Counted from the first letter of the stretch, positions 28,843-46,864 are shown. The stretch: DNA of 64,000 nt from an uncultured Candidatus Rokubacteria bacterium (GCA_963699775.1 CAVOVE010000015.1:687588-751587), one strand, 5' to 3'. Made by a program: numbers and translations. Notes: generated from the letters alone by a model not told the origin.

Positions 28843-28858
28843 GCTCTTTCAGGCCTCC

Positions 28859-29440
<582 letters not shown>

Positions 29441-31081: not shown

Positions 31082-31151
31082 ACCCCGTCATCACGACAGC
31101 GCGCGTACCCTACGAAAAATACAACGGAATGTCAAGATCGGCACCAGAGGA

Positions 31152-31230
31152 CCCGGCTCAGCCGCCGCCAAACTGCCGCAGCACACAACCGGCAATCAGC
31201 AGACCGACCCCCCAGGGCCGGAAAACATGC
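31152..31230 (-). repeat. approx. 75-bp duplicated copy of the 3' end of the small membrane protein gene at 33549..33782 (direct repeat partner at 33545-33620)
   Basis: approx. 90% nucleotide identity (gacccggctcagccg...cagcagaccgac.ccccagggccggaaaacat); the copy here would encode ...VFRPWGVGLLIAGCVLRQFGGG*. Confidence 0.7.
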
Positions 31231-31259
31231 GCGGAGAAAGGCTCCCGCCCGTCAGGCGC

Positions 31260-32806
31260 CTCGCTTCTTTTCCTTCTCGCCGGCATCCATCTCGCCGAGA
31301 TACTTCGGCAACTCCAGACCCGACATCTTCGCGACCTCCTGCAGCGGCGGCAGGCTCTTGATCAGGCCGGCGAGAAAGTTGGCGGTGGACGAACCGTCCT
31401 TGCCGTCCTTGCCGCCGCCCGAATCCCAGACCGTGACCTTGTCGATCTTGATGTTCTTGATCGCCTCGACCTGGAGCGTGACCAGCTGCTCGAGTCTTCT
31501 CGACGAGCAGGAACGTGGCGGCCGCCTTGGCGTCCCCGGCGCAGCTCTTGACCAGCTCCTGGTAGCCGGCGGCCTTGCTGTCGAGCACCTGGCGGACGCC
31601 TTCGCCTCGGCCTCGTACTTGACCAGGATCGCGTCGGCCGAGCCCTTCGCCTCCCGGCGGACCTTCTCGGCCTCGGCCTCGGCGGAGATCTCGATCTTCT
31701 TCTTCTCGATCTCCTCGCTTGACGACCTCTTCCGCGGTCAGCCGCTCCTGCTCCGCCAGGTACTGGGCCTTCTGGATCTGGACCTGCGCCTCGCGCTTGG
31801 CGACCTCGCCGCGCCTGAGGGCCTCGGCCTGCTTGACCGCGTAGCTCGGCTTCGACCGCCGCGATGTCGGCCTTGGCGAGGTTCTCGCCCGTCGACCGCC
31901 GACGCCTCCTGCTGCTGGACGAAGACGCGCCGGTCGGCTTCGGCCTGCTTCTTGCCCTTGTCCGACTCGGCGACGTTCTGGGCGACCTTGATCTCCTTCT
32001 CCCGGTTCGCCTCGGCCTCGCCGATCGTCGCGGCGGACTCCTGCTGCTGGACGAAGACCCGGCGGTCGGCCTCGGCCTTCTTGCGCCCCTTCTCCGACTC
32101 GGCGACGTTCTGGGCGACCTTGATCTCCTTCTCCCGGTTCGCCACGGCCTCGCCGATCGCGCCGAGTTTCTCCTGCTGCGACAACGTCGACCCGCGCCTG
32201 GTTGATCGCCTCGGAGGCGGCCTTCTTGCCGATGCTCTCGATGTAGTCCGACTCGTCGGTGATGTCGGTGATGTTCACGTTGATCAGGTAGAGGCCGATC
32301 TTGTTCAGCTCGGGCTCCACGTTCTTGCGGATCGACTCCAGGAAGCTCTCGCGGTCCTGGTTGATCTGCTCGATCGTCAGCGAGGCGACCGTGAGACGCA
32401 GCTGGCCGAAGATGATCTCCTTCGCCATGTCCTCGATCTTCGCCGAGGTCAGGTTGAGCAGCCGCTCGGCGGCGTTGTTCATGATCGCCTTGTCGGTGCT
32501 GATGCCGACGGTGAAGGTGCTCGGCACGTTGATGCGGATGTTCTGCAGCGAGAGCGCATTCTGCAGCGGGATGCTGATGGTCATCGGCGTCAGGCTCATG
32601 TAGGCGTAGTCCTGGATCAGCGGCCAGACGAGCGTGCCGCCGCCGTGGATGCAGTTGGCCGACTGCCCCTCGCCGACCTTGCCGTAGATCACGAGGATCA
32701 TGTCCGAGGGGCAGCGCTTGTAGCGCGACGCGAGGAAGACGACGGTCGAGACGATCAGGATGACGAGCGCGGTGGCCGGGAAGATCCAGAGCGAGATGCC
32801 GAACAT
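31260..32806 (-). CDS. flotillin-like SPFH/band-7 protein (FloT/YqiK type) with internal 44-aa tandem repeat; two frame changes
   Basis: N-terminal TM plus SPFH domain (ORF 31196..32806), EA-rich coiled coil with duplicated IGEAxANREKEIKVAQNVAESxKGxKxAEADRRVFVQQQE (ORF 31738..32184), C-terminus ...EMDAGEKEKKRGA* in third frame. Confidence 0.85.
31906..32159 (-). repeat. near-perfect tandem duplication of 132-bp period (approx. 122-bp identical unit plus 10-bp spacer) inside flotillin coiled-coil region
   Basis: unit ctcctgctgctggacgaagac...ggcctcgccgatcg occurs twice with period 132 bp. Confidence 0.85.
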
Positions 32807-32821
32807 GTGCTCTCCTTTATG

Positions 32822-33406
32822 CTATGCGAGCGGCGTTTTCTCGACCACCAGGGTGCTGCCGGTTGCCGACAGGACGCGGATCGGGGTCCCCGTCCTGATC
32901 TCCTCGTGATCGGCCGCGACCGCGTCGAACTCCCGCTGTCGCCCCGCGAATGTCACCTGGACCTTGCCGGTGCCCCCCGCGGGGATCGTCAGGTACACGG
33001 ACCCGACGCCCCCGATGGCCCGGTTATTGTTGATCGTGCCGCTCGACTGCAGCCGCACGGTGATGGTGAAGATCTTGCCGATGAGCCACGTCGTCCCGAG
33101 CCCGGCCGCGGCGGCCCCCGCGAACGCGAGCGCCTCGTGGACCCCGCTGCCGCGCGAGAGGGCCAGGCCGACCAGGCCGAACATCACGAAGAAGGCGGTC
33201 AGGCCCTGGAGCGAAAGCAGCTTGAAACTGACATCCGCGTCGGCGTGGACGACATCCGCGTTGCCGACGTCGATATCCGCATCGCCGCCATCGTGGACGC
33301 CGAAGAGCTGCGCGGCGAAGCGGACGAGAAACAGCAGCACCCCGAAGCCGGCGCAGACGACGAAGACCAGGTCGATGCCGGTCAGACCCGTCAGCGCCCC
33401 TTGCAT
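32822..33406 (-). CDS. NfeD-family membrane protein (flotillin-associated, C-terminal OB-fold)
   Basis: 194 aa; two N-terminal TM helices then beta-rich OB-like domain; operonic with flotillin. Confidence 0.8.
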   Translation of the reverse strand: MQGALTGLTGIDLVFVVCAGFGVLLFLVRFAAQLFGVHDGGDADIDVGNADVVHADADVSFKLLSLQGLTAFFVMFGLVGLALSRGSGVHEALAFAGAAAAGLGTTWLIGKIFTITVRLQSSGTINNNRAIGGVGSVYLTIPAGGTGKVQVTFAGRQREFDAVAADHEEIRTGTPIRVLSATGSTLVVEKTPLA

Positions 33407-33548
33407 GAACGCCCCCTTCCCGTGATCAAGAAACCTCTGCTTGGCCCGACCGAGAACGGCAGCACGCCCGCACCATCGCCCCGTGTCGTGCTGAACCCTG
33501 CGCTGGGCGGATTCTCATGCCGCCGGAGCCCAAAGTCAAGGACCCGGC

Positions 33549-33782
33549 TCAGCCGTCGCCGAACCGCCGCAGCACAGAACCGGCAATCAGCAGACCGACT
33601 CCCCAGGGCCGGAAAACATAATAGTAGACGGAGCCGACCGCGAGCAGACCCGGAAGATTCATGTCGTGCGGGTGGAAGATGGCGTCGTAGGCGAAGGAGA
33701 CCGCGAAGAGCACCGGGATCAAAGCCAGCCAGAGGAGCGCCAGCCGGAACATCCAGCGCCCGAGGGCGCCAACCCCGCTCAT
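33549..33782 (-). CDS. small 2-TM membrane protein (77 aa), function unknown; its 3' end is duplicated downstream of flotillin
   Basis: ORF 33549..33782, hydrophobic helices; first gene of the small-protein/nfeD/flotillin module. Confidence 0.5.
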   Translation of the reverse strand: MSGVGALGRWMFRLALLWLALIPVLFAVSFAYDAIFHPHDMNLPGLLAVGSVYYYVFRPWGVGLLIAGSVLRRFGDG

Positions 33783-33818
33783 CGTGCTCCTCCCCCCCGC
33801 CCTGCCGGCGCCGGCGGA

Positions 33819-34706
33819 TCAACCGCAGTCCAGGATCGCGCGCAGGGCCGCGGCCCGGGCGGCGCTTTGCGCATCCCCCGTGACCAGTTCGATCTGCTCC
33901 GGTCCGGCGGCGCCGAGACCGAGTTCGACGGCGCGCGCGATCTGCCCCTGGCGGAAGATCGGTTTTCCCATGACCGCCCGGTTGCTGCCGATCTCCTTGA
34001 GGACCGCGAGGCCGACGGCGTCGACGGCGACGCGGTCGGTCCCCGCGAGGACGACGCCCGCGGGCTTCCGGGTCCCCGTCATCGGCCCGCCGTCGACAAA
34101 AGCCTCGAGGCCGTCGAGAACGACGAGGGCCGGCTGGTAGACGGTGTTGACCTCGGCGATCATCCTGCGCATCGAGAGCAGCGACGCGTGCAGCTCGCGC
34201 ATGTTGCGCCGGTGCACCATGCCGATGGAGTTCTTCAACGACATCGTGAAAACACCGCCATAACCGTGAGTCTTGAGGCAGCAGGTCGAAACCACGCACG
34301 GCGACTCGAGGACGGGGCGCGCGAAGTCGAAGCCGTTGAGCCAGGCGCTGCCCGGAGGCTGTTGGCGAACCCAGCCTTCCCGGGGGAGCGTCTCGAGGTC
34401 GAGGATCTCCGCGCCGAGCCGTGCGCAGAGTTGCGGGACTCCCTTGGCAGCCAGGACCGTCGCCATCTGCGCCGGGCCGCAACGGTCGGCGACGGTGACG
34501 CCGACGGCACCCAGCTCCTGCAGGGTCGTGATGAGCGACGCCAGGGTGTCGTTGTGCGTCGAGCCGGGGTAGGGATCAGCGGTGTTGAAATTGGGCTTGA
34601 TCAGCACCCGGACGCTGCGCGCTGCGCTGCAGCCGATGAGTTCGACGGCTGCGCGCACGCCGGCGGCGCGGTCAACGGTCTGGACGAGTGCGACTCGCGA
34701 AGACAT
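33819..34706 (-). CDS. DUF362-domain protein
   Basis: 295 aa; KPNFNTADPYPGSTHND region typical of DUF362; last gene of the peptide-modification operon. Confidence 0.65.
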   Translation of the reverse strand: MSSRVALVQTVDRAAGVRAAVELIGCSAARSVRVLIKPNFNTADPYPGSTHNDTLASLITTLQELGAVGVTVADRCGPAQMATVLAAKGVPQLCARLGAEILDLETLPREGWVRQQPPGSAWLNGFDFARPVLESPCVVSTCCLKTHGYGGVFTMSLKNSIGMVHRRNMRELHASLLSMRRMIAEVNTVYQPALVVLDGLEAFVDGGPMTGTRKPAGVVLAGTDRVAVDAVGLAVLKEIGSNRAVMGKPIFRQGQIARAVELGLGAAGPEQIELVTGDAQSAARAAALRAILDCG

Positions 34707-34728
34707 CGGGTCCCCCCCCTCTTCCGAT

Positions 34729-36483
34729 CTATACCACAGGCGTGTCTTCCCGACGATCGTTCGAGGCGCGGGAACCGCCGGCCACGCCGAGGACCCGCGC
34801 GACCATGTGGACGGGGTGGATGAGGTAGAGCAGCGGCACCAGGGCCCCGTGCCGCACGCGCCAGTAGCGCCGCAGGCGCACGGGCGCGGGGAAGAGCGTG
34901 CGCCCGAGACCCGTCAGGCGCGCCGGGCGGAAGAAGAGGCGGGGACTCATCTTCATCAGCCGGGCGAAAAAACGCCCTGTCCCCGGGGCGGCGCTCCGGA
35001 GCGGGAAACCGGCTCGCACCGGCGCCGCGGGCGGCACGCCGCAGCGATCGCAGGCCGCCTCGGCCACCGGACCGGGGTGCAGCAGACGCAGGAGGCCCAG
35101 GGCTTCGGCGATCTCCTCCCCGACGTTCCAGGCGGCGGCCCGCTCGCGCAGCAGCCCCGCGTCCAGCTCGGCGTCATGCAGGGCGAAGTGACGCTGCAGG
35201 TCCGTGAACCAGAGCAGGCGGTTGCCGACGCAGGGACGGAGGAACCAGGCGGCGGGGAGCCCGGCGCGCAGCCCGGCGCGGTTGAGTATGCCGTGCCGGG
35301 CGGCGTGCACCGCGAGGTAGAGGAACTCGTCGACCGGGGCGGGAACGGGGATCGCCAGCGCGCCGGCCATCCTCTCGCCTCGGCGCGCGAGCAGCTCTTC
35401 GGCCGGGATCCGGGCAAGGCAGGCCCGGTCGGTGAGGCCCCAGTGCAGTTCGATCGGGACGCGGCCCTTGCGCGCGCGGTGCGAGCGTGACGTGGAAGTG
35501 CACGCGGTCGAGGAGCCGCGCCGAAATGCCGACCGGGGCGCTGTAGCCGGCGGCGAGGAGCGCCCGACGCGCGCGCGCGTCCGGTCCGCCGGCGCCACGA
35601 GCAGGTCGAGGTCGGAGCTGGAAGCGCTCGGCGCCCGAGGCGTAGAGGTGCACGAGGGCCGGCCCCTTGAGCACGAGGTGCGGCACCCCTGCCGCGATCG
35701 AGGGCGGCAGCGGCCTCGCGAAAGGTCTCGAGCGCATCCAGGTGCGCCAGGCCGGCGCGCAGGGTGTGCCGGCGCAGCTCCCCGGCGATCCCCGCCGGCA
35801 GGGCGGCCCCCGACCAGCGCAGTACGGCGGGGACGACCCCGTGGGTCACGGCCCCCTGCAGCAGGAGCGATCCCGTCGAGGTCGGATCCCGCAATGGGCG
35901 TCGCGGGATCAAGGTCTCTGCGGCAGCAGGCGAGAAGGAACTCGCGCTCGGCCGCGGCGGACTCGTCGTCGAGGGAGAAGACGGGATACGCGGCGGCGAG
36001 CAGCGGCAGTGCGAGGGCCTTGAACGGCCGCAGCAGCCGCCGGCGGCGGCCGCGGCAGACCCGCGGATCCTGCCGCCCGAGACCAGCCCCGCGCGGAGTG
36101 CGTCGGCGAGGTCGGCCTCGACAGCGGGACGCCCGCGTCAGCAGACGCACCGCGAACCGCGAGGCGGGCGGGTCGAGACGGCGCAGCGCGCCGCGGCAGC
36201 CGACCCAGACCGCGCGCCCCTGCACGTCACGGGCGTCGATCCAGCTCGAGACCGCGTTGCCGTCGCCCTTCTCGCGCAGGAGCAGGGTCTCGCCGTCGCG
36301 CCTGAGTTCGAGCACGCGGTGGACCAGCGTGCGCTCCCCGTCGCGAAAGGCCACGATGTCGCCGGGGGAGACCGACCCGCTTTCGCACGGCGCGAGGCCG
36401 ACCTCGGCGCCGTCGCGGATGAGCGGGTACATGCTGCGCCCCGAGGCCCGCACGATGCGCGCCGCCGCAGCGGAGCCGCTCAC
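34729..36483 (-). CDS. S24/S26 (LexA/signal-peptidase-like) peptidase domain fused or adjacent to PF14907-type nucleotidyltransferase-family domain; central part frame-shifted
   Basis: N-terminus ARIVRASGRSMYPLIRDGAEV...GDIVAFRDGERTLVHRVLEL (S24 fold with SM nucleophile); nucleotidyltransferase-family segments GVPHLVLKGPALVHLYASGAERFQ, VHFHVTL, IELHWGL..FLYLAVHAARHG spread over three minus frames. Confidence 0.6.
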   Translation of the reverse strand: MSGSAAAARIVRASGRSMYPLIRDGAEVGLAPCESGSVSPGDIVAFRDGERTLVHRVLELRRDGETLLLREKGDGNAVSSWIDARDVQGRAVWVGCRGALRRLDPPASRFAVRLLTRASRCRGRPRRRTPRGAGLGRQDPRVCRGRRRRLLRPFKALALPLLAAAYPVFSLDDESAAAEREFLLACCRRDLDPATPIAGSDLDGIAPAAGGRDPRGRPRRTALVGGRPAGGDRRGAAPAHPARRPGAPGCARDLSRGRCRPRSRQGCRTSCSRGRPSCTSTPRAPSASSSDLDLLVAPADRTRARVGRSSPPATAPRSAFRRGSSTACTSTSRSHRARKGRVPIELHWGLTDRACLARIPAEELLARRGERMAGALAIPVPAPVDEFLYLAVHAARHGILNRAGLRAGLPAAWFLRPCVGNRLLWFTDLQRHFALHDAELDAGLLRERAAAWNVGEEIAEALGLLRLLHPGPVAEAACDRCGVPPAAPVRAGFPLRSAAPGTGRFFARLMKMSPRLFFRPARLTGLGRTLFPAPVRLRRYWRVRHGALVPLLYLIHPVHMVARVLGVAGGSRASNDRREDTPVV

Positions 36484-39069
36484 GCCAACCCCTCGATGAG
36501 CCGGAGCATCGACTCGAGCCTCCCGGGCGTGAGCTTGTAGAACACGGTGCTCCGCAGCAGCCGCGCCAGGTCCTGGAGAAGCGGCGTCATGCGGCCGCCG
36601 AACTCGCCGGCGATCAGCTCGCTGACCTGGTGCGGGATGATCTTCTTGGAGAACTCCAGGACACCCGCCGCGGCCGGGATCCGCAGCAGTGCCGGCTCCG
36701 CGTCGAAATCCGGATCATCGAGGCCCTCGAGGCGCACGCCGGCGAGGGCGACCCCGTGCTCCCCGACCAGGCGCACGAGGGCCGGCATACCCGTCCCGGG
36801 GTCCGCCATCTCGACGACGACCAGCGTCAGACCGTCCTCCTCCGACCGGGCGTGGACACGCAGGCCGGGAAGCGCGTCGAGCGCCGCGCCGAGCGGATCG
36901 GTCCAGTCGGTGAGGGCCAGCCGCACCTTCCCCTCGTGCTTCGCGAGGGTCAACACCGAGGGCTGCGCGCGCGGCGTGAGAAAGAGCACGACGTCCGGAC
37001 GCACCGGCGCGGCGGGCGGCCGACCGGTGAGTTCGCGCACGTCGACGAGTTTCTTGGCAGTCGCTGCGGAATATCTGGTCCGTTGTCTCCCGGCCGACCA
37101 GGAGAGGTTCGCCCACCCCCGGACGGATGCCGACGGGAAAGGACGCGGGCAGGACGAGTCCGCTCGCGCGCTCCAGCGGGGCGAGCTCGTCCGAGAGCAG
37201 CCCGGCGCCCCGGACGGCGAGGTGCGCCGTGAGCGTGGATTTGCCCATCCGGGAGGGCGCCGCGATCACGACGCCGCGACCCCCGAGGCTCACGCAACCG
37301 GCGTGCGCGAGGTAGGCGGTCCTGACACGCGCCTCGGCGAGATGGACGAGGGTGAGATGCGCCCAGGCGACAAGCTCCTCGCCGCGCAGGCGCCAGGCGC
37401 GCTCCCCGGCCACGAATGTCGCGCGCGGCTCCCGCCCCTCCTCGATCAGTGCGGCGATCTCGACGTCGGGCGGCCGCCCCGGATCGAGGGGGACCTCGAA
37501 GATGCCCAACTCGCGGCGGGCGCCTGCGATCGGAGCGGTCGTGTTCGCACTCAGCCGGACGCGGGTGCCGAAGAGGTCGAATTCGATGGCGTGCCGGGCC
37601 GCGGCGGACACGGCCCCGCGCTCCTCCGGCGCGAGCACGGTTTCCTCGAGGTAGGGAGACGCCACTGCGCCCTCAGGCCGCGCGCCGTGAAAAGAAGCGG
37701 CGGAGAGAAGATAGGGAAGGAATCCCGAGCGCAGCAGCGCGGTGTAATCGCGCGGCCGCGCGTGACGGAGGACGTCCGCCAGGTAGGCCGGAAAGACCCG
37801 GCGGCGGTAGAGGGCGCGCTCCGCCCGCAGCAGCTCGGCGTCGCTCATCTCGGAGAGGTTGGGCGTCGAACCGGCGGCGGGGCCCCCTCCTGCCGCGGGT
37901 GGTTGCCAGAATCGCGGAGCGAGACGTCCCGCGGCGACGAGATCGCGGACGAGGGGGGTCCCGGGCATCGGGATATAGCGAATGAGCCTGACGATCGTCG
38001 GACGCGTGCGGGCGAGGAACCCGTCGGTGAGGCGCGCGTCCCCGGCGGTCTCGCCGGGGGTGCCGATCATCACGGAGGCAAGGGTCCGTATCCCGGCGCG
38101 GCGCGCCAGCCGCAGCGCGGTCTCGTGCGTCGCGAGCGTCTCACCTTTGCCGAGGCGCTCCAAGAGGCGCGGCGAGCCGCTCTCGATCCCGAATTCGAGC
38201 TGGACGCAGCCCGCCCGGCGCATCAGCGCGAGGATCCCCGCGTCGACGGAGTCGGTGCGCACCTGGGCCGCCCAGACGATGCGGCCGGCCAGGCCGCTGC
38301 GAACGAACTCGTCGCAGAGCGCGGCGACGCGGTCGCGGTTCCCGAGGAAGGTCTCGTCCTGGAAGTAGATCCCCTCGACGCCGTGCGCCGCGACGAGCCG
38401 CTCGACGTCCGCGACCACGCGGGCGGCGGAGTGCCAGCGGTGCGGCGCCGGGTAGAGTCGGCCCTCGGCGCAGAAGCGGCAGACGCCCGGGCAGCCGCGC
38501 GAGGAGAGGACCGTCGCGGTGCGCAGCGGCAGGCAGGGTATCGCGCGCAGCGTGCGGCCGGTGTGGTAGCCCATCTCGAGCAGGTCCCAGGCGGGCGGCG
38601 GGATCCGGTCGAGATCCGCAAGCGGCGGCCGGGGTCGAGCGCGGCTGACGGCGCCGCCCGTCCGGGCCGCCGTCCCGGGCACTCCCGCGAGCGGTGCGCC
38701 GGCGGCTATCTCGAGGAGGGTCTCCTCGGGTTCGCCGATCACGATGCCGTCGAGGAACGGGTGCGCCGCAAGGGTCTCTTCGGGAACCAGTGTCGGATGC
38801 CGGCCGCCGGCCAGCAGGAGCGCCGACGGCGCCGCCTCGCGGGCGAGCGCGCCGCAGCGAGCGAAGTCGGCGAGACGCTCGAGCGGCACGTCGAAGAGGA
38901 CGACCCCGGGGGAGAGTTTCCCGATCGCAGCCCGGAAGAGATCGGCGGCACCCTCCGGTGCGGCGGCGGGGGCCGCGATGCGGTCGAACTCCAGAAGGGA
39001 CACCTCGTGCCCGCCCCCCCGGAGGGCGGCGGCGGCGAGGGGCAGATACACCGGCGTCCAGAGCGGCAT
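36480..39069 (-). CDS. B12-binding radical SAM domain protein (N-terminal approx. 460 aa) continuous with an HprK-related P-loop kinase-like C-terminal domain; frame change near 36720-37040
   Basis: B12-binding LAAAALRGGGHEVSLLEF..LLLAGGRHPTLVPEE; radical SAM SSRGCPGVCRFCAEG, YFQDETF; then VVIAAPSRMGKSTLTAHLAVRGAGLLSDELAPLER (HprK C-domain-like P-loop), continued in ORF 36480..37040; no stop between the domains in the assembled frame. Confidence 0.6.
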
Positions 39070-39150
39070 CGACGGCAGCTGCCGCCGCGGCCGTCAGGTC
39101 GACGAGCGCTACGCGCACGCGCGGCGCCGCCGCTCCCGCCGCAGCGGGTT

Positions 39151-39447
39151 TCAAGACTGTTTTTCGCCTGCAGGCACCGCCGGACCGAGGAGCCCCTTCG
39201 CGGCCATCGCCCGGAGGCTCTCCCGAATCATCGCTGCCGGATCGGCGTGAGCGGCCAGGTCGTACCGCTCGCGCAGCCGCTGCTCGATTTCCGGTACGTC
39301 CAGACCGGCCTTGAGGCCCTCCCAGATAGCGGCGGAAGCCTCGTTCAGAACGTGGACCTGATCGGTCTCGGCGTCGAAGACCATGATCTCCTCGCCCAGA
39401 CGTTCCTCTCGCAGGTGCGGCCGGGGGCGGTACGTCTCCGTCACGGT
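39151..39447 (-). CDS. PqqD-family protein (RiPP recognition element / peptide chaperone)
   Basis: 97 aa; LGEEIMVFDAETDQVHVLNEASAAIWEGL matches the PqqD beta-strands/helix pattern; GTG start. Confidence 0.7.
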   Translation of the reverse strand, partial: TVTETYRPRPHLREERLGEEIMVFDAETDQVHVLNEASAAIWEGLKAGLDVPEIEQRLRERYDLAAHADPAAMIRESLRAMAAKGLLGPAVPAGEKQS

Positions 39448-39562
39448 TCCTCGCTAATCGAGCGACGCTCGGAATGCCGGTAAAGACCTGCTGGGTTTCG
39501 AACTCCTCGCGTTTGAAGGTTTCAATCGCCGGGACCGGCAGGGGCTGCTTCGGGTCGCGCAT
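39448..39562 (-). CDS. candidate precursor peptide ORF (MRDPKQPLPVPAIETFKREEFETQQVFTGIPSVAR...), 3' end undefined because it runs into pqqD in +1 frame
   Basis: ATG at approx. 39562 preceded by GAGGAGAG Shine-Dalgarno at -7; alternative upstream ATG at 39613 (MLDRKAKESATLTRRAK-); positioned immediately 5' of the PqqD gene, as is usual for RiPP precursors. Confidence 0.3.
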
Positions 39563-39638
39563 CTTCGCTCTCCTCGTCAAGGTTGCGGACTCTTTCGCCT
39601 TGCGATCTAACATAAATGATCCTCGCCGGGCAAGTCAA

Positions 39639-40985
39639 CTAGTCCGGGAACGGGGCGTTGTCGACCGCGGGACGGGGAAATTTCGTCTCCCGGCCGGTGC
39701 CGAGCACTTTCCAGAGCGGATAGTGCTCATAGCGGCCGAGGAGGGCCTCGATGTCGAGGTCACGCTCCGCAAAGCTGTAGAACACGATGCAAAGCGGGGA
39801 CCGCCACCCGCCACCGCGTACACCCTCGAGGAGCTCGCCGACCGTGGCGCCATCGTCCGGGGCGACCCGCCCGGCTTCGATGGCCGACGCGAGCAACTCC
39901 ACAAACCGCCCTGGAGCCCGTCCGCGCAGAAACCGCTGCGCCGGTGCCCGGACCCAGATACGCTCGCACAGCGGCGCGACGGCGCGCGAGATCTCCCGGT
40001 AGTACTCGTCGCGCCGTCCGCCGCAGGCGGTGAGGATTCCTACGGTGGCGTCGCACCCGAGCGAGTGTGCCAGGCGCTCGAAGAGCGGTATCTCCAGACG
40101 GTAGCTCGCGGGGTTCTTGCACTCGCTCAGCAGCACGTGGATACCGGCGCCGCGCAGCAGGGTGTTGCGGCAGACGTTGTCCCGCGGTTCCAGACCGAAC
40201 TCGCGCAGGGCGGCGAGGGCGGCGCTTGTGTCGAGCCGGACCCGCCTCCCCAGCGCCTCGTGCGCGGCCAAGGCAGCCATCGCGTTCGCGGTGTTGTGCG
40301 CCTGGAAGCCCCCGAGCGTGATCGGGATCTCGCCGACAGCGATCACGGGCCGCGCGCCTTCGGGGCCTTTCTTCCAGATCGTCCCCCCTTCGAGGTACCA
40401 GCAGCGGGGGTGCTCGCCCTGACGGCCTTCAACGGTGAAGAAGACCGTCTCCACGCCGCGCGGGCGCGGCATCGCGCGCACGAGCGGGTCGTCGGCGTTC
40501 AGGACTACCGTCCCGCCGCGGCGCACCCGGCGGGGGATGGCCGCCTTGACGCGGGCCATAGCCTCCACAGTTTCGATCCCGCGGTCGCCAAGGTGGTCGG
40601 GAAGGACGCTCGTCACCACGCCGACGTCGATGCGGCTGAAGCCCGGTCCGTACTCGAGCAGGCCCCCGCGAGCCGTCTCCAGCACAAGCGCCTGTACCCC
40701 TGGACACTGCGCTGCCCGCCAGGCGCCTCCCGGCCCGGCCTCGTCCCGGCGGTTGACATAGTGCCCGGCGTGGGCCACCCCATCGGTGGTGCAGGCCCCG
40801 ACGCGGAGCCCGGAGGCTCCCAACATCCGGGCGAGGAGCTTCACAACGGTGGACTTGCCATTGGTTCCCGTGACGGCGGCGATGGGGACCCGCAGCGCAG
40901 CGAGGCGCGGCCGCACGAGGAGGCGGACCGCCGTACGATAGGCGGCAATCCTCAGGTGGTAGTGCCGGTCGACGAATCCCTTGAG
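39639..40985 (-). CDS. Mur-ligase-family protein (CphA C-terminal / CapB / MurD-like amide ligase)
   Basis: VPIAAVTGTNGKSTVVKLLARML (Mur ligase P-loop), VLETARGGLLEYG, DVGVVTSVLPDHL middle-domain motifs; approx. 449 aa; GTG start overlapping upstream rSAM gene. Confidence 0.7.
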   Translation of the reverse strand, partial: LKGFVDRHYHLRIAAYRTAVRLLVRPRLAALRVPIAAVTGTNGKSTVVKLLARMLGASGLRVGACTTDGVAHAGHYVNRRDEAGPGGAWRAAQCPGVQALVLETARGGLLEYGPGFSRIDVGVVTSVLPDHLGDRGIETVEAMARVKAAIPRRVRRGGTVVLNADDPLVRAMPRPRGVETVFFTVEGRQGEHPRCWYLEGGTIWKKGPEGARPVIAVGEIPITLGGFQAHNTANAMAALAAHEALGRRVRLDTSAALAALREFGLEPRDNVCRNTLLRGAGIHVLLSECKNPASYRLEIPLFERLAHSLGCDATVGILTACGGRRDEYYREISRAVAPLCERIWVRAPAQRFLRGRAPGRFVELLASAIEAGRVAPDDGATVGELLEGVRGGGWRSPLCIVFYSFAERDLDIEALLGRYEHYPLWKVLGTGRETKFPRPAVDNAPFPD

Positions 40986-42000
40986 ACCCACCGCTGACCT
41001 CCCCTCTGGCCGGCGAACAGTGCGCGAGACGGCTCGAAGCACGAACAGCCCCGACAGAACCTCGGGACACACCTGCCGCGGGACCAGAGCGCCCGTCGTA
41101 TCTCCCGCGCTTTCGCGCCGCCCCAGGCGAGCGCGAAACCCTTGTTGTCCGCAGCCCCGAGCACCATGCGGCCTCCCCAGTCCTGGCAGCAGAGGAGCAC
41201 TCTTCCGTCGCGAAGAACCGCTGCGCACTGGAATGGCGCACTGCACGCCGGCAGCGCGCGACCGAAGGCGAGCCTCAGCCTCCGTCGCCACGGCCGACGC
41301 AACTCCGCTGCTGCGAACTCGCTGTAGCGAACGAGCTCTCCGGCCCGGTTTCTCAAGGGCAGGACCAGCGCCTCGACGCCGCGCTCCGTCCAGTGGCGGA
41401 GGAACTCGGACGCTTCCCCGGCATTGGCACGCTGGCGAACGAACCGGACGCGGACTTCGAGCCCGCGCTTCCGCGCCGCCGCGACCCCGGCGACGGCCCG
41501 ATCGAAATCGAGCCCCGGACGCACCACCCGATAGGTCTCCGGCCTGAGCGCATCGAGGCTGACCTCGATGAAATCGAGTCCGCCTGCGGCCAGCTCCCCC
41601 GCGCGAGCCTCGTCGAGCAGCGAACCGATGGTGACGACGCCGATCCGGCAGCGGGGTCCGAGGGCGACCCGGGCCTCGCGCACGCGCAGTCCGAGCTCCG
41701 GGTCGAGGAGCGGTTCGTTCTGGAGCATGAGCACGAGGATCCGCACGCTGCCGGCGTCGGCGAGTTCACCGATGATGCTGCGGTACAGCCCGGCCGCCAT
41801 CGTCCCGCCGTCGCGGCCGCAACCGTGAGCAACCGGGCAGGTCGGGCATCGGCCGTTGCACCCGCCCACGGTCTGAATCTGGACGACGCGAGGGCCGGGG
41901 AAAGCAGCCTCAGCGCCAGCGAGCAAGGCGAGCCCGCGGCGTGCGAGATCGGCACCCAGGAGGGCGTCTGCCGCGATCGCGCGGGCGCGCCGGGTCAGGC
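40952..42000 (-). CDS. radical SAM protein with SPASM/twitch-type C-terminal Cys cluster
   Basis: CNGRCPTCP (CxxxCxxC), GEPLL-like NEPLLDPEL, C-terminal CSAPFQC...LCCQDW...CRGC; start codon uncertain. Confidence 0.75.
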
Positions 42001-42090
42001 GCCCCACCCGGATCCGCCAGGCACGATCGCCTTCCCGCTGCGCTCCACGCTCAGCGCCGATTTCGCTCCCGGTTCCATCCTGGCGGCTGT

Positions 42091-43017
42091 TCACGGGACA
42101 ATCCTGAACGGGGCGTTGCCCCGGATGTTGCCCTCGCTGGCTGCCGCCACCGGGCCGGCGGGGTCGAGCGCGCATTCATACGGGTGAGCGAAAGATGTTG
42201 TCGGCAGACCGCTTTCACCCGCGCTGCTCAACCCCAGGTCCCGGTACTGCGCGAGGAGCGAGGTGATCGGCATGCCAGGGTCCTGGGAGAAGAAGGACAG
42301 ATGTGACACGACGAGGGGATTGAAGATCCGGTTCACCCGCCCGAGCCGCTGCGGGATGGTGACGCTGAGCGCCTCCTCGTCGTCACCGCGCACGCCGTTG
42401 AAGTGCTCCAGGTCCCGCCCGAGGTAGCTGACGAAGTTGATGCTCAACCGGTCGGGTGCGATCGTTGTCCCCGGCCGAGCGAACGCGGCGGGTGCCGCGA
42501 GAAAGTGCCGGTGCAGGCGGGTTGCGAGCACTGCGCTCTCCCAGAGGATGCCGCAGAACCCCCTCGGCGGATACGGGAGGACCATCAGCGAGCTGGGCAC
42601 CGTCCCCTGCAACTGTTGATTGAACGCGCAGACCCCGTTGTTCACGACGTTTGCCGAGAGGAGGAAGGTGTCGGTGTCGGTACGACGATGCGCGATGAAC
42701 ACCGGGAGCCGCTCGAGATCGACGAACACGATGTCGTCGTCGGCCTTGATGAACAGGGTGTCCCCGTACGACGATTCCCGGTAATGCTCGTAGTAGTCGT
42801 CGTAGCACGGCCCGGTCGGTCGGTACAGGCGAATGCCCGGGTGCAGTCGGGGCAGTGTCGAGATCCAGTTCCGGTCCGACTCGTTTCGAGCGTAGTCCCA
42901 GATGTGATACTCGGAGACGACCCTCCGCTGCAGCGCCGTCGCCGCGTAGCCGACAAGGATCGACATTCGGTCGCGGCGGCCGGCAAACGTGGTCATGATG
43001 ACACGCGATGGCCCCAT
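42091..43017 (-). CDS. hypothetical protein with DXD-type motif (FIKADDDIVFVDL), possible GT-A-fold glycosyltransferase
   Basis: 308 aa ORF; composition protein-like; weak resemblance to capsule-synthesis GT families. Confidence 0.4.
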   Translation of the reverse strand: MGPSRVIMTTFAGRRDRMSILVGYAATALQRRVVSEYHIWDYARNESDRNWISTLPRLHPGIRLYRPTGPCYDDYYEHYRESSYGDTLFIKADDDIVFVDLERLPVFIAHRRTDTDTFLLSANVVNNGVCAFNQQLQGTVPSSLMVLPYPPRGFCGILWESAVLATRLHRHFLAAPAAFARPGTTIAPDRLSINFVSYLGRDLEHFNGVRGDDEEALSVTIPQRLGRVNRIFNPLVVSHLSFFSQDPGMPITSLLAQYRDLGLSSAGESGLPTTSFAHPYECALDPAGPVAAASEGNIRGNAPFRIVP

Positions 43018-43069
43018 GGCAGCCGGCAGCGTACCAAAGCGGCACGGCGCGGTAAAGCGCCGCGACGGC

Positions 43070-43103
43070 GTTTGCAGGGCGCAGCCCTTCGTTTATATAA
43101 CAG
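43070..43103 (+). promoter_or_regulatory. candidate promoter/RBS for GT75-like gene (TTCGTTTATATAACAGGTG)
   Basis: AT-rich TATATA-containing patch in otherwise 70% GC DNA, AGG 8 nt upstream of GTG start; divergent intergenic region. Confidence 0.3.
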
Positions 43104-44083
43104 GTGTGATTACTGCGGTCGTCGTGCCATCCTGCCGCGAGGAGCAGTCGAGGGAGTTCGTGCAGGCTTGGGATGGGGCCTTCTCGCGCGATGGCGTCCG
43201 GCTCTACATCGTCGAGGACGCTGCGGAGCGCACATTCCGCCTCGACGGCGCCGCGACCGCCCGGTTCACCCACCTCTGCTGGAGCGACGCGCCGCCGGGG
43301 ATGTTGGACTGCATCGACGTCCGTTCCCCGGGTTGCCGACAGATCGGGTTCTGGCAGGCCTATCGCGACGGCTGCGATGTGCTGATCACCCTCGACGACG
43401 ACGTTCGGCCCGCACCGGGATCGGACCTGATCGGCGAGTTCTCGCAGGTGCTCCTCGAGGGGATTCCCCTCTGGATCGACCCCTTGCTCAACTACCGCTC
43501 GCGGGGATTCCCCACCGGAAATCCGGGACGGATCCGTACGGATTTCCACGTGGGGTGCTTTCTTGGCGTCCCGGACGTCGACGCGGAGACCCAACTCAGG
43601 CACGCGCGGGATTTCCCGGGCGACCCGCCCCGCTATCTCCCCCGCCCATTCGTGGTACCGCCCGGTTTCCTCATCCCGGTCAACGGCGGGATCGCCGGTT
43701 GGCGACGGGAACTGACCCCCTATGTCCATTACACGCTCTGGGACCCGAGCCAGGGGTACCGGCGCTTCGACGACATCTGGATGGGGGTGATTCTCAAGCA
43801 CCTGCTCGACCTGGCGGGGCTACGGCTGAGTTGCGGCCCCCCGTCCGTCCAGCACAATCGCGCCTCGGACGCCCGCAAGAACCTCGAATACGAGCGGGCG
43901 GGCAAGCAGTGGAACGAGCGGTTCTGGGCGTTGCTGCGTACGGCGGTCGACGCTGCTCGGGGCTCCGGATCGTTCACGGTGCAGGAGGCCCACGAACTCG
44001 TGGCGCGCTGCCTGCTGGCGATGGACAACTCCTGGGCGCACCGTGAAGGCGAGGCCCTCCTGCGCTGGCGCTCTTTTTTCTGA
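43104..44083 (+). CDS. RGP-like (reversibly glycosylated polypeptide / UDP-arabinopyranose mutase, GT75-family-like) glycosyltransferase
   Basis: VITAVVVPSCREEQ..LYIVEDA..LITLDDDV and especially RRFDDIWMGVILKHLLDLAGLRLSCGPPSVQHNRASDARKNLEYE resembling the RGP motif [45 protein letters not shown]. Confidence 0.55.
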
Positions 44084-44097
44084 TCCTGGAGCCCGCG

Positions 44098-44856
44098 ATG
44101 AGAAAAAGCGCGATCTTCACCATGGTCCGCGACGAGCAGGTCTTCCTGCCGATCTGGCTGCGCTACTACTCGCGGTTCTTCGCCCCCGGGGACATCTACG
44201 TCTTCAACCACCGCTCGACTGACGGCAGCGTCGAGGCCGCGCAGCGGGAGTGGCGGTTCCGCCGGATCGACGTCGACCACCCGGTCTACAACGATTTCCC
44301 GTGGTACACGGCATTCATTCAGGAGCGGCAGCGCAAGCTCCTCGCGCGGTATCACGTCGTCCTCTTCGCAGAACCCGACGAAATCCTCTGGCACGCCGAC
44401 GGCCTCGGGCGCTACATCCGGCGGTTCCGCGGCGACGCCGTCCGGGCGAACGGCCACCAGATCTGCCACGACCGGGTGGAGGAGCCGCCGCTGGAGCTCT
44501 CGCGAACAATCCTGTCGCAGCGCAAATATTTCGTCCCCGACCCGACGTACTGCAAGCAGCTCCTGACCCGGGTGCCTCTGACGTACATCTTCGGCTTTCA
44601 CGAGGCGACCGAGTGCCGGGAGATCGACCCCGACCTGTACCTCTTCCACCTGCACTCCATGGACTACGAAATGGCGCTGCAGAAGCACGAGCGGACCCGG
44701 CGCTACCGCGACTACTCCCGGACAAGCGTCGAGCAACACCTGGGATTCCAGAGCCTGCTCGTGGGCGAGGATTTCAACCGCTGGTTCGACGGCCAGTCGA
44801 CACCGTTGACACGGCACCTCATACCGGATCGGGTCCGGAGCAGCGACAGCTTCTGA
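44098..44856 (+). CDS. putative glycosyltransferase (nucleotide-diphospho-sugar transferase fold, GT2/GT92-like)
   Basis: 252 aa; MVRDEQVFLPIWLRYYS, AEPDEILW segments typical of GT-A DUF-type transferases. Confidence 0.45.
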   Translation: MRKSAIFTMVRDEQVFLPIWLRYYSRFFAPGDIYVFNHRSTDGSVEAAQREWRFRRIDVDHPVYNDFPWYTAFIQERQRKLLARYHVVLFAEPDEILWHADGLGRYIRRFRGDAVRANGHQICHDRVEEPPLELSRTILSQRKYFVPDPTYCKQLLTRVPLTYIFGFHEATECREIDPDLYLFHLHSMDYEMALQKHERTRRYRDYSRTSVEQHLGFQSLLVGEDFNRWFDGQSTPLTRHLIPDRVRSSDSF

Positions 44857-45149
44857 GATCTGCGTCGGGGCCCGCGGCAGGGGTCAAGCAGCGCCGAGAG
44901 GCCGAACGGCTGCGCCGCTGCTGGGAATGAATGCCGCCACCCTCTGGAGGAAACTGAAATCATTTCGAGACCCCCCATGATTGCATCGTGCATGATTCGC
45001 GGGCATTGAGTTGGCGAGTGCTCCGATTCACATCCCGTGAAGATCGACGCTCATTCACCCACGGGTGTTTCGCTGTCGGAGCAAAGTGCGAATTGCCTCC
45101 CCTGTGTGCCATCACCCCAAAAGTCCAGTCGCCAGCGTCCTGGCGCATG

Positions 45150-45192
45150 GATTGCGGCTATATTGAGCAAACCTACAACGGAGGAGAAGGCA
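45150..45192 (+). promoter_or_regulatory. candidate sigma70-like promoter and RBS upstream of osmC (TTGCGG-N17-TATATT; GGAGGAGAAGG)
   Basis: read directly from sequence 45140-45192. Confidence 0.3.
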
Positions 45193-45723
45193 ATGACCGT
45201 GGTGAACGGGCTGGAAGTAGACAACCTGGTGAAGGTGGTCGAAGCGGTGAAGCAGAAATGGGAGATGGGGAAAACGGTCTGGAAGGCCACCACCACCTGG
45301 AAGGGCGGCTTCCAGGTCGAGACGTGCTCGCGCGACTTCACGCTGCTCGCGGATGAACCGGAGATGCTCTGCGGCACCAACACGGCGGCCAACCCCGTCG
45401 AGATGGTGCTTCAGGCCTACGGCGCTTGTCTCTCGATCGGCTACGCGATGAACGCCGCGGTCCGCGGGATCAAGATCCAGGACCTCACGATCGATCTCGA
45501 AGGCGAGATCGACCTCCCCGGCTTTCTTGGATTGGAGGCTCCCGAGGATCTGAAGATGGACAAGCTCCCCGGCTTCAAGACCATCGACGTCAAGGTGAAG
45601 ATCAAGGCCGACGCCACGCCAGAGGCGATCCGACAACTCCACGCGCACGTGGTGGGCACCTCCCCGGTCGGGATCACGCTCTCGCGCCCGGTCAAGATCG
45701 GAACGGCTGTGGAGGTTCTGTGA
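45193..45723 (+). CDS. OsmC/Ohr-family peroxiredoxin-like protein
   Basis: PVEMVLQAYGACLSIGYAMNAA, conserved Cys pair spacing. Confidence 0.8.
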   Translation: MTVVNGLEVDNLVKVVEAVKQKWEMGKTVWKATTTWKGGFQVETCSRDFTLLADEPEMLCGTNTAANPVEMVLQAYGACLSIGYAMNAAVRGIKIQDLTIDLEGEIDLPGFLGLEAPEDLKMDKLPGFKTIDVKVKIKADATPEAIRQLHAHVVGTSPVGITLSRPVKIGTAVEVL

Positions 45724-46139: not shown

Positions 46140-46292
46140 GTGGGGGAACCGTCGGGGGAGCGTCGAGCCCCCGACGGCTCATTTCGCCGGCACGGTTTCG
46201 TAAACGCTGCGGCAATCCGTTCACCGAAGATGTGGCTCACGCCCTCGCGGAGCTGAAGAAGCGCCTTTCATCCCGGGAACGAAGATCAGTCG

Positions 46293-46667: not shown

Positions 46668-46864
46668 GTTCGTCCCCTCCTTCGTGGTTGCGGCCTGCCA
46701 GACGCGTGGCGAATCGTTGATCTCGCTCCCCGCATGATTCCTTGGTGTCAAAGATACGCCTCATGAACGGAATATGCACCTTGAGACCAGCCTCCCCGTT
46801 CGTGCCGACCCGCGCGCTGCAAACTCTCGCACTCCCGCGCCAGGCTTCCAGCCGCCCCCTGCCG

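Follow-up and report, generated by a model that had tools for sequence, protein, structure and literature searches.

A probable RiPP-type biosynthetic cluster with radical SAM enzymes in an uncultured Methylomirabilota bacterium, distantly related to LPP systems

Which kind of product might be formed by eight neighbouring genes in a 64,000-nucleotide stretch of DNA (the window) from an uncultured bacterium is the question raised by this locus, which an initial annotation had read as a RiPP-type peptide maturation operon. Judged from sequence comparisons, the region is probably a genuine eight-gene RiPP-type biosynthetic cluster and a distant, radical SAM-equipped relative of the LPP (linear polyphosphorylated peptide) family of Bacillota, which is encoded by lppA, K, B, S, D and N (Popov et al., Nat Commun 2026, PMC13381572). 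The cluster host is a Methylomirabilota genome, in which the cluster is part of a 15.7-kb island that is variable between strains, and the trigger factor encoded in the window groups at at least 90% with a Candidatus Methylomirabilia MAG. Pfam and NCBIfam profile searches reproduced every domain call of the initial annotation; all eight reading frames are on the minus strand, and the spacings given for them were reproduced as well. No transporter or exporter was found among the eight genes in these domain searches. The features are given from upstream to downstream.

40952..42007, minus strand: radical SAM/SPASM enzyme, 351 aa (Pfam Radical_SAM, SPASM)
39639..40985, minus strand: Mur-ligase-family amide ligase, 448 aa (PF08245, TIGR02068)
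39609..39638, minus strand: sigma-70-like promoter match TTGACT-18-TATGTT (consensus match only)
39454..39562, minus strand: precursor peptide gene, 35 aa after correction (tblastn, HMM)
39151..39444, minus strand: discrete PqqD-type recognition element, 97 aa (PF05402)
37673..39069, minus strand: cobalamin-dependent class B radical SAM enzyme (B12-binding and Radical_SAM)
36480..37665, minus strand: P-loop kinase of predicted HprK/PEPCK fold, ~394 aa (TIGR04352, L052 orthologue)
34729..36483, minus strand: S24/signal-peptidase-like domain fused to a PF14907 (NTP_transf_5) nucleotidyltransferase (Peptidase_S24, PF14907)
33819..34706, minus strand: DUF362 protein, 295 aa, intact (PF04015)

As assembled, one ORF (36715-39069) encodes B12-binding and Radical_SAM domains followed by an HprK P-loop, and had been reported as a fusion, with the suspicion that a sequence error might have joined separate genes. 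Comparison with the related locus L052, where the full eight-gene order was found again at 85% nucleotide identity with all genes intact, bore out the suspicion and not the fusion. In L052 the two genes are separate, whereas in the window they are joined by a 1-nt deletion near 37703, because of which the TGA at 37675-37673 is hidden. The kinase start is GTG 37665, 7 nt past the TGA of the B12-radical SAM gene, and the arrangement in L052 is identical. The B12-radical SAM orthologue of L052 (465 aa) ends in PRRAA at its stop codon, nine homologues without a kinase fusion have 476-483 aa, and out of frame upstream of the window gene an ancestral N-terminal strand is encoded (VRVALVDLT, GTG 39118). 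The kinase orthologue of L052 is intact with 394 aa, whereas tblastn located the window kinase in two frames, with a 1-nt insertion near 37057. Seven indels of 1-2 nt occur in the transferase gene (at 36124, 36038, 35869, 35697, 35621, 35580 and 35469). Altogether, the indel map against L052 contains 10 frameshifting indels in the precursor, B12-radical SAM, kinase and transferase genes and one more in the gap between the PqqD and B12-radical SAM genes, and the genes for the radical SAM/SPASM enzyme, the Mur ligase, PqqD and DUF362 are free of them. Both the fusion and the disrupted genes result from errors in sequencing.

In principle, true mutations could underlie the indels, and the cluster would then be a decaying pseudogene remnant with 10 true coding frameshifts, from which no product is made. 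Such decay would agree with the clustering of the indels, seven of which fall inside ~650 bp of the transferase gene, with the four indel-free genes and with the location in a strain-variable island. However, the essential clpX of the same window has two frameshifts and yet every frame segment is perfectly ClpX-like; clpX of the relative L011 has two as well, with one site in common, and a related long-read assembly thus has clpX frameshifts at partly different sites. Frequent frame switches are seen throughout the window, each of the out-of-frame transferase segments is well conserved when compared to relatives, and the contig of 1.46 Mb is typical for an unpolished long-read assembly. Decay is therefore quite improbable.

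The precursor gene was located by tblastn with the peptides of the related locus L005, followed by three-frame reading and by the indel map against L052. A small ORF from 39613 to 39445, with a 0-bp gap to its neighbour, had been proposed earlier, but this frame has no in-frame stop and stays open for 490 codons. The gene starts at ATG 39562, preceded by a GAGGAG site at 39575-39570. It lacks an in-frame stop as assembled, and after removal of a 1-nt insertion near 39462 it ends with TAG at 39456-39454 and encodes MRDPKQPLPVPAIETFKREEFETQQVFTGIPSVAD (35 aa); the orthologue in L052 is MHEPKQPLPVPTVETFGRGELETLQVFTGQPSVVD. An HMM of the precursor family matches the window peptide at 2e-15. This family comprises 27 distinct peptides from 13 loci, to which P11, E20 and T28 are common, and its members were found beside the same enzymes in ~11 loci besides the window. 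Family precursors of 30-40 aa consist of a leader with the motif [F/L]xxPx[V/I] and a variable tail, and the consensus is FExPxVxTYxRxELxVETxFTG, with an invariant Pro and nearly invariant Glu and Thr. The tails (4-12 aa) are hypervariable, and a single locus can hold as many as six copies in tandem. In the window's own precursor subgroup the 'VET' tripeptide ahead of the (A/V)FT motif is absent, which makes the cleavage site uncertain.

The PqqD-type protein matches PF05402 with 33.7 bits (cutoff 23.4) and TIGR04353 with 33.5 bits (cutoff 35), a model for which L052 gave no match at E 0.001. A profile of the recognition-element family matched TfuB1 (5e-5), LppB (9x8z; 1.5e-4) and PbaB1 (9x90; 3.7e-4) in the PDB, which are recognition elements of lasso and LPP systems. 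These matches and the conserved precursor family support the earlier reading as a RiPP-type maturation operon. Matches of the kinase to HprK-type models span ~70 residues and do not reach the curated cutoffs set for TIGR04352 and PF07475; for TIGR04352 the window kinase reaches 44 bits, in the P-loop only, and the kinases of the window, L052, L005 and L001 range from 44 to 53 bits (cutoff 200). An AF2 model of the kinase relative P0161 (pLDDT 93.7) gave ATP-PEPCK as best Foldseek match (1.5e-6) and HprK/P at 2e-4, so that an HprK/PEPCK fold is supported for the predicted structure. The C-terminal domain of the kinase is rare, with 63 cluster representatives among 1.84 billion. An assignment as ordinary HPr(Ser) kinase was considered and rejected (TIGR00679 16-26 bits, cutoff 240; PTS genes absent nearby).

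The other fusion, of an S24-type peptidase domain to a nucleotidyltransferase, proved to be genuine, since relatives from short-read data have a single ORF of 567-611 aa. Its peptidase domain matches TIGR02228 (36 bits, 5e-9; cutoff 51.85), SipW (3e-5) and, in the PDB, SEC11A (7e-3), and Ser17, His55 and Asp74 are invariant in an alignment across 9 relatives. PF14907 scores are 58.8 bits for the window protein and 140 bits for its intact L052 counterpart, and a DxD motif is present. For the B12-radical SAM enzyme, scores of 45 bits (B12-binding) and 66 bits (Radical_SAM) were obtained, and the best NCBIfam model was ApyD with 134-137 bits (cutoff 750). The DUF362 protein (PF04015, 144 bits) is 64% identical to its L005 orthologue and shows the invariant motifs KPN...CxKTH...SLK...GGP...DRVAxD. 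DUF362 and the N-terminal domain of LarA belong to the same Pfam clan (PMC11770544).

Precursor, PqqD, HprK-like kinase, peptidase::PF14907 transferase, B12-radical SAM enzyme and DUF362 form a core that occurs in ~11 independent loci from Verrucomicrobiota, Lentisphaerae and PVC MAGs as well as on metagenome contigs. DUF362, B12-radical SAM, kinase and peptidase::transferase genes (plus PqqD) recur in L001, L002, L003, L005, L006, L007, L010/16, L015, L018 and L052. Of ten relative loci with sequence information at the corresponding place, nine have DUF362, which accompanies every B12-radical SAM enzyme except in L007, and an Asn-synthase gene is carried by L005 and L018 only. Co-conservation, the lack of which would have counted against the reading of the initial annotation, was thus seen for the core in ~11 loci and for all eight genes in L052; the scores of the kinase for HPr(Ser) kinase and of the radical SAM enzymes for PqqE and MoaA, far under the cutoffs, also agree with that reading.

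The two upstream genes are restricted to the window lineage, and among the relatives the pair of SPASM enzyme and Mur ligase stands beside the cassette in the window and L052 only. The SPASM enzyme (ORF 40952-42175, true start GTG 42007) matches Pfam Radical_SAM with 65 bits and SPASM with 30 bits, its best NCBIfam model is rSAM_Geo_metal (69-80 bits, cutoff 400), and Pfam and NCBIfam searches found no N-terminal recognition domain on it; the L052 orthologue (351 aa) is 81% identical. PqqE (24-28 bits, cutoff 381) and MoaA (38-55 bits, cutoffs 284-325) were rejected as identities of the radical SAM enzymes. The Mur ligase ORF overlaps the upstream SPASM gene by 34 nt and matches PF08245 with 68.7 bits. 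TIGR02068 is matched at 2e-71 with 241 bits (cutoff 850) over profile positions 474-815 only, which is the M-domain half, and a full-length cyanophycin synthetase was rejected on these grounds. Orthologues of the Mur ligase in L052 (86% identity) and L053 (59%) are each followed by a precursor gene, and in these three loci (window, L052 and L053), where Mur ligase and precursor adjoin, three of three peptides end in Asp. In L053, the family precursor comes directly after the Mur ligase and other cassette genes are not found within 10 kb; near the homologue L054, no precursor was found. Peptides of Mur-ligase-free loci also end in Asp, which weakens the inference from Mur ligase to C-terminal Asp.

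The sequences themselves show which genes are present, what they are homologous to and that they are conserved together, as well as the family of precursors, the catalytic residues kept among relatives and the fact that fusion and frameshifts are artefacts; from LPP and phosphorylated lasso peptides we infer all chemical steps and the cleavage site. The PqqD-type element would bind the 35-aa precursor via the [F/L]xxPx[V/I] motif of the leader, and the kinase of HprK/PEPCK fold would phosphorylate a hydroxyl residue in the short core. The best candidate for the phosphosite is the nearly invariant Thr of (A/V)-F-T, with a Ser/Tyr four to six residues on as an alternative, and this Thr would be core residue 3, like Ser3 of LPP, if cleavage occurred two residues ahead of it. 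In LPP, Ser3 is polyphosphorylated and LppK refuses Thr or Tyr at this position (PMC13381572), so a phosphorylation of Thr is an extrapolation. The PF14907 domain would attach a sugar or a nucleotide-derived group to the phosphate, and the signal-peptidase-like domain, aided by the recognition element, would cut off the leader. The B12-radical SAM enzyme, assisted by DUF362, most likely C-methylates an unactivated carbon, a proposal made because of the best match to ApyD and because a Phe is conserved beside the candidate Thr in the family precursors. In the window lineage, the SPASM radical SAM enzyme may make a crosslink or an epimerisation, and the Mur ligase may form an ATP-dependent amide bond, plausibly at the C-terminal Asp carboxylate. 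We tentatively suggest that these systems might constitute a distinct RiPP class of uncultured Methylomirabilota and PVC bacteria, in which the core, about ten residues long and VFTGIPSVAD in the window, would receive a phosphate on Thr/Ser, a further group on this phosphate from the peptidase-fused PF14907 domain and a C-methyl group from the B12-radical SAM enzyme with DUF362; in the window lineage, the Mur ligase would add an amino acid to the C-terminal Asp. If true, this would be, to our knowledge, the first case of a Mur-ligase-family enzyme that tailors a RiPP, and a DUF362 protein would have a function for the first time.

The peptide might instead serve as primer or anchor of a cell-surface glycoconjugate, being phosphorylated, glycosylated via the phosphate and flipped or exported with polysaccharide machinery. 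Wzx-type Polysacc_synt flippases within the cassettes of L002, L006 and L010/16, glycosyltransferases adjoining the L002 cassette and glycosyltransferase-like genes directly upstream of the cluster in the window (42091-44856) are consistent with such a role, as are the location of LPP clusters in capsular polysaccharide loci, for which a biofilm role was speculated (PMC13381572), and the PF14907 homologue PsmN, which is needed for hexose addition to phospho-Ser (PMC6993621). However, several loci lack a flippase, hypervariable multi-copy cores fit diversified secreted peptides better, and the upstream neighbour in L052 is a CARDB protein and not a glycosyltransferase, which means that conservation of the cluster does not extend to the sugar genes; we regard this role as rather doubtful. 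It concerns biological function and is compatible with the proposed RiPP chemistry. According to another reading, SPASM enzyme and Mur ligase are an independent module of two genes, which adjoins the LPP-like cassette without acting on the cassette peptide. The presence of the pair beside the cassette in no relative except L052 speaks for it, as do the precursor-free L054 homologue and a promoter-like match with a weak hairpin between the Mur ligase and precursor genes, where a consensus scan found 2 sites versus 0.3 expected in shuffles, a match to consensus only. Nevertheless, order and overlapping frames of the pair are kept in L052 at 85% nucleotide identity with a differing upstream gene, the 59%-identical Mur ligase of L053 directly precedes a family precursor, and the SPASM enzyme has no recognition domain of its own and would need the discrete one, so that a separate module appears unlikely. 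A cofactor or primary-metabolism locus (PTS HPr kinase, PQQ or molybdenum-cofactor radical SAM enzymes, or cyanophycin synthesis), suggested by weak family-level matches to HPr(Ser) kinase, MoaA, PqqE and cyanophycin synthetase, is extremely improbable, as all of these matches are far under curated cutoffs and HPr, PTS, PQQ and Moa partner genes are absent from the cluster and the neighbourhood examined.

The RiPP-type reading, which we prefer, would extend an LPP-like logic of recognition, kinase, peptidase and transferase to distant uncultured phyla, where it comes with a constant extra pair, B12-radical SAM enzyme and DUF362, and with cores that are short, hypervariable and present in multiple copies. 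Because the cores are short compared to the 45-residue LPP core, the end product should be much easier to study by mass spectrometry and NMR, and a solved product could show the roles of PF14907 transferases and DUF362 proteins. A Mur ligase that travels with a precursor offers a concrete starting point in the search for a novel type of peptide tailoring. As a practical lesson, a striking 'fusion enzyme' was an assembly artefact.

The window system shares with LPP a discrete PqqD-type element, an archaeal/SipW-type signal peptidase I and an HprK-like kinase, and probably also the type of NTP transferase; both lack a lasso cyclase and have glycan genes as neighbours. LppN, whose Pfam family is not named in the paper, is presumably a PF14907 member. 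For the window, the signal peptidase is predicted from profile matches and the invariant Ser/His/Asp, and the HprK-like kinase from a P-loop match under cutoffs and the AF2 fold of a relative. The precursors of both have an xxPxV leader motif and, ~12-17 residues on, an ET/FT element with a hydroxyl residue. In LPP the leader motif is YxxPxVL...FET|xxS, in its fuller form YxxPxVLxHQxIxFETxxS, and a signal-peptidase-like Ser/His/Asp enzyme cleaves after T-1 and needs the recognition element (PMC13381572); compared to the family consensus, the xxPxV and ET parts agree and HQ, the exact spacing and Ser differ. The conserved hydroxyl residue is Thr in the window family and Ser in LPP, the leader aromatic position is Phe/Leu instead of Tyr, and cores have ~8-16 aa, compared to LPP precursors of 35-200 aa. 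Unlike in LPP, a single protein combines peptidase and transferase, the B12-radical SAM enzyme is conserved with DUF362 nearly always alongside, and the window lineage has a SPASM radical SAM enzyme and a Mur ligase. LPP reportedly occurs in Bacillota only, its core cluster includes an MsbA-like ABC exporter, and LppN was inactive in a heterologous host (PMC13381572); the window family occurs in Methylomirabilota and PVC bacteria and lacks the MsbA-type exporter, in place of which some relatives have a Wzx-type flippase.

The phosphorylated or glycosylated lasso peptides paeninodin and pseudomycoidin (PMC6993621) resemble the window system: an HprK-like kinase modifies the precursor in its linear form, hexose on the phosphate requires a transferase of PsmN type, and recognition is by a discrete PqqD protein. 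However, tblastn with the L005 Asn-synthase found no Asn-synthase cyclase in the window and Pfam found no cyclase or B2 domain in the eight genes, in line with the absence of lasso cyclase and B2 cysteine protease noted before, and a lasso fold would need longer cores. Haft's HPr-rel-A pair (TIGR04352 kinase A and TIGR04353 PqqD chaperone) provides the best NCBIfam matches for kinase P-loop and recognition element, but both window proteins are below the cutoffs (44-53 vs 200; 33.5 vs 35) and the window kinase is ~110 aa longer. ApyD, the B12-radical SAM enzyme of aminopyruvatide and a RiPP-tailoring Tyr C-beta methyltransferase, carries its own recognition domain (PMC10635010), and the window lacks a P450 or MNIO partner. 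The Mur ligase is homologous to the M domain of CphA1, yet it stands alone, without N-terminal and ATP-grasp domains, beside a RiPP precursor. The CphA M domain ligates an amine (Arg) to the Asp side-chain carboxylate. The SynChlorMet cassette was rejected as a match (ScmE 43 bits vs 400, ScmF 22-39 vs 400, ScmD 20 vs 100). The initial annotation had called the architecture undescribed, which no longer applies to the core quartet of peptidase, recognition element, kinase and transferase, published in 2026 as LPP (PMC13381572), and stands for the rest: the conserved pair of B12-radical SAM enzyme and DUF362, the union of peptidase and transferase in one protein, the shortness of the cores, the hosts outside Bacillota and the lineage-specific SPASM enzyme with the Mur ligase are undescribed within the literature searched.

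On the minus strand, a tight series of genes extends from 33819 to 42175, within a window whose G+C content is about 70% and in which, for this reason, long spurious ORFs are common. Searches with Pfam and NCBIfam reproduced in full the domain content that had been claimed in the initial annotation:

Minus strand: Radical_SAM and SPASM protein (Pfam, NCBIfam)
Minus strand: Mur-ligase middle domain; best curated match, the C-terminal (M-domain) half of cyanophycin synthetase
Minus strand: PqqD (Pfam, NCBIfam)
Minus strand: B12-binding and Radical_SAM domains, followed in frame by an HprK-type P-loop (Pfam, NCBIfam)
Minus strand: Peptidase_S24 and PF14907 nucleotidyltransferase (Pfam, NCBIfam)
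Minus strand: DUF362 (Pfam, NCBIfam)

An ordinary HPr kinase, radical SAM enzymes of cofactor biosynthesis or a lack of co-conservation in relatives had been named as speaking against a peptide-modification operon, and none of them was found; the scores for HPr(Ser) kinase, PqqE and MoaA were far under the curated cutoffs. The same holds for the scores of the cluster proteins against the full cyanophycin synthetase and SynChlorMet families in the NCBIfam search, and the curated thresholds of the HPr-rel-A families were not reached by the cluster proteins. A lasso peptide was also considered (Asn-synthase genes occur in the related loci L005 and L018) and was ruled out for the window, which encodes no cyclase and no B2 protease, and where the cores are too short. 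The cluster belongs to none of the lasso, SynChlorMet, PQQ and cyanophycin systems.

Reading the region in three frames revealed that the kinase moves to another frame after about 37060, that the transferase switches frame repeatedly and that the small ORF as assembled lacks an in-frame stop. Pseudogenisation was first considered as an explanation, but was rejected on account of frameshifts in clpX and of an intact relative of the cluster. In the window, clpX (27574-28900, minus strand) has two frameshifts near its 3' end, each frame segment being perfectly ClpX-like, and clpX of the related long-read contig L011 (11902-13165) also has two frameshifts, with only one site common to the window. 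The frameshifts are thus errors rather than signs of decay, and the assembly contains pervasive indel errors. The intact relative, the short-read contig L052, is 85% identical to the window at the DNA level from about 42190 to the contig end; its gene content and order are those of the window, and all genes are separate and intact. Base-level alignment of the window with L052 placed 11 indels; besides those given below, one is at 39092, between the PqqD and B12-rSAM genes.

Genes of L052 and corresponding indels in the window
rSAM/SPASM: 351 aa
Mur ligase: 455 aa
Precursor: 35 aa; 1-nt insertion in the window at 39462
PqqD: 97 aa
B12-rSAM: 465 aa; 1-nt deletion in the window at 37703, near the gene end
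Kinase: 394 aa; 1-nt insertion in the window at 37057
Peptidase::transferase: 582 aa; seven 1-2-nt indels in the window transferase gene, at 36124, 36038, 35869, 35697, 35621, 35580 and 35469
DUF362: start only, at the contig end

The B12-radical SAM enzyme and the kinase, initially annotated as one fused protein, are separate. The deletion at 37703 masks a TGA at 37675-37673, and a GTG kinase start follows 7 nt downstream, as in L052, where the two genes are separate; in a collection of 5.8 billion proteins, all B12-radical SAM homologues are unfused and about 480 aa long. The fusion of S24 peptidase and nucleotidyltransferase is genuine and is conserved in relatives. At 39040-39120 (minus strand), the B12-radical SAM enzyme has its ancestral N-terminal strand (VRVALVDLT, GTG at 39118) in a different frame from the remainder of the gene; in L052 (4220-4300) the two share a frame, but a canonical start codon is missing. 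Between the precursor stop and the start of PqqD there are 9 nt in the window (39443-39456) and 98 nt in L052 (3827-3926), a difference of 89 nt. Elsewhere on the minus strand, a single ORF at 11270-13360 encodes both MgsA-type AAA+ ATPase domains and a CHASE2 sensor domain and is probably another indel read-through, not a true fusion. PUFA-synthase/PKS-like genes at 48550-64000, also on the minus strand (a ketosynthase, two FabA dehydratase domains and an acyltransferase-like stretch near 60.2 kb), are split into many frames, probably by the same indel errors.

For the small gene, the start at ATG 39613 given in the initial annotation had to be abandoned in favour of ATG 39562, which is indicated by a ribosome-binding site and by alignment with all relatives. 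After frame correction, the window precursor reads MRDPKQPLPVPAIETFKREEFETQQVFTGIPSVAD. Using tblastn and an HMM trained on the initial members, we found that peptides of this family adjoin the enzymes wherever a locus has enough sequence, with 27 distinct precursors and up to six tandem copies per locus. Their consensus, M..KK.FE.P.V.TY.R.EL.VET.FTG, precedes a hypervariable tail of 4-12 residues; Pro11 is conserved in all peptides and Glu20 and Thr28 in nearly all, and almost all tails contain Ser, Thr or Tyr.

The core enzymes (PqqD, DUF362, B12-radical SAM, a kinase of about 395 aa and a peptidase::transferase of about 570-610 aa) occur in about 11 distinct loci, from MAGs of Verrucomicrobiota, Lentisphaerae and the PVC group and from several metagenome contigs; in L007, no DUF362 was detected. 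Members of the family are rare: of 1.84 billion cluster representatives, 63 match the C-terminal domain of the kinase at E <= 1e-3, and neither Pfam nor NCBIfam has a model that matches this domain. A word-indexed homologue search with the C-terminal fragment of the kinase returned one fragment only, and exact-sequence look-ups of the DUF362, PqqD and 784-aa proteins of the window returned no contig on record. Accessory genes vary, with Asn-synthase and formyltransferase in L005 and L018, Wzx-type flippases in L002, L006 and L010, and the SPASM radical SAM enzyme and Mur ligase restricted, among the loci compared, to the window and L052. In L003 (4944-5342) and L006 (963-1253), DUF362 is directly preceded by genes for proteins of 96-132 aa with a weak match to Peptidase_S74 (intramolecular chaperone), of which the window has no counterpart. 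In L002, the PF14907 protein (1106 aa) includes a further B12-radical SAM domain as a fusion, and the region upstream of the cassette (1-4472), which may be a second peptide system, contains glycosyltransferases, a second ScmC/HprK-like gene and two peptides of 51 aa with Cys residues (MKAKYEKPVVQKIRLVPSEAVLQSCK...).

The trigger factor of the host clusters at 90% identity or more with that of a Candidatus Methylomirabilia MAG. In a relative with 92-96% identical flanks, 3.2 kb take the place of window 31142-46863, so the cluster lies within a strain-variable island of 15.7 kb, which comprises NfeD/Band7, the RiPP cluster, glycosyltransferase-like genes (42091-44856) and OsmC. The G+C content of the cluster is 72.2%, versus 66.1% and 64.5% in the immediate flanks, and the cluster is absent from L011, which shares the window's trigger factor.

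As for the chemistry, every step of which we infer, the recognition element would bind the leader, and the kinase would phosphorylate the conserved Thr of (A/V)FT, which would be the third residue of the core if cleavage takes place as in the linear polyphosphorylated peptide (LPP) systems; a downstream Ser or Tyr is the alternative site. The transferase would then decorate the phosphate, and the fused peptidase would remove the leader. C-methylation would most likely be due to the B12-radical SAM enzyme, whose best curated match is ApyD, a Tyr C-beta methyltransferase (PMC10635010). DUF362 and the LarA N-terminal domain belong to the same Pfam clan (PMC11770544), and a single-sequence structure model of DUF362 was unusable (pLDDT 36.7).

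Further steps in the lineage of the window and L052 may be carried out by the Mur ligase and by the SPASM enzyme, which itself lacks a recognition domain. The M domain of cyanophycin synthetase ligates onto Asp. In three loci, L053 included, the Mur ligase is directly followed by a family precursor, and all three peptides end in Asp, which suggests that the Mur ligase might, by analogy, ligate onto this C-terminal residue. This idea is only a lead, because a C-terminal Asp is also found in loci without the Mur ligase. In L053 (6069-11492), the Mur ligase, which shares 59% identity with that of the window, comes after genes for a MacB-type ABC transporter and for a GDSL lipase and before a 34-aa family precursor, MEKNQQLPAPAVVTFKREELEFGVVFTGQPSRPD; no other cassette gene (kinase, PqqD, transferase) was found within 10 kb.

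Literature searches found no paper on the architecture of the cluster and nothing relevant on PF14907, HPr-rel-A or DUF362 with a precursor peptide. In the LPP systems of Bacillota, described in 2026, conserved genes encode LppS, which is a signal peptidase I of the SipW-like kind (Ser29/His68/Asp93), the discrete recognition element LppB, the HprK-like kinase LppK, the uncharacterised NTP transferase LppN and an exporter resembling MsbA (PMC13381572). Their precursor motif is YxxPxVLxHQxIxFETxxS; LppS, helped by LppB, cleaves after T-1 and LppK polyphosphorylates Ser3 (PMC13381572). A single PqqD sequence gave no match in the PDB, and a family profile was required, which matches TfuB1, LppB (9x8z) and PbaB1 (9x90). 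The peptidase domain, with invariant Ser17, His55 and Asp74, matches SEC11A and models for signal peptidases of the archaeal type. Neither DUF362 nor the kinase gave informative results in PDB sequence searches; the AF2 structure predicted for a kinase relative (pLDDT 93.7) matches ATP-PEPCK and HprK/P. The transferase retains a DxD motif without which PsmN does not function, and hexose addition to phospho-Ser in pseudomycoidin depends on PsmN (PMC6993621).

In the more distant loci L022, L025 and L026, the peptidase, recognition element, kinase and PF14907 protein are encoded by separate genes and leaders start with YEEPKVL, which forms a bridge between the family studied here and the LPP group. 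These loci are LPP-like clusters of a more canonical kind that fall outside this family (L025 5400-10600, also L026 and L022). Their separate signal peptidase, of the archaeal type, scores above the cutoff of TIGR02228, and they further encode PqqD, an HprK-like kinase of 308 aa, a PF14907 transferase, a GT2 and an O-methyltransferase, as well as precursors that start with YEEPKVLATYKKEEL and end in Gly/Cys-rich tails; a replication-initiator gene lies at the end of L025. By analogy, the cluster would work like the LPP systems, but it has no MsbA exporter, its host phyla differ from Bacillota and its leader and core match the LPP motif only partially. In comparison with LPP, it adds a conserved B12-radical SAM enzyme, a near-constant DUF362 protein, a domain fusion and very short cores.
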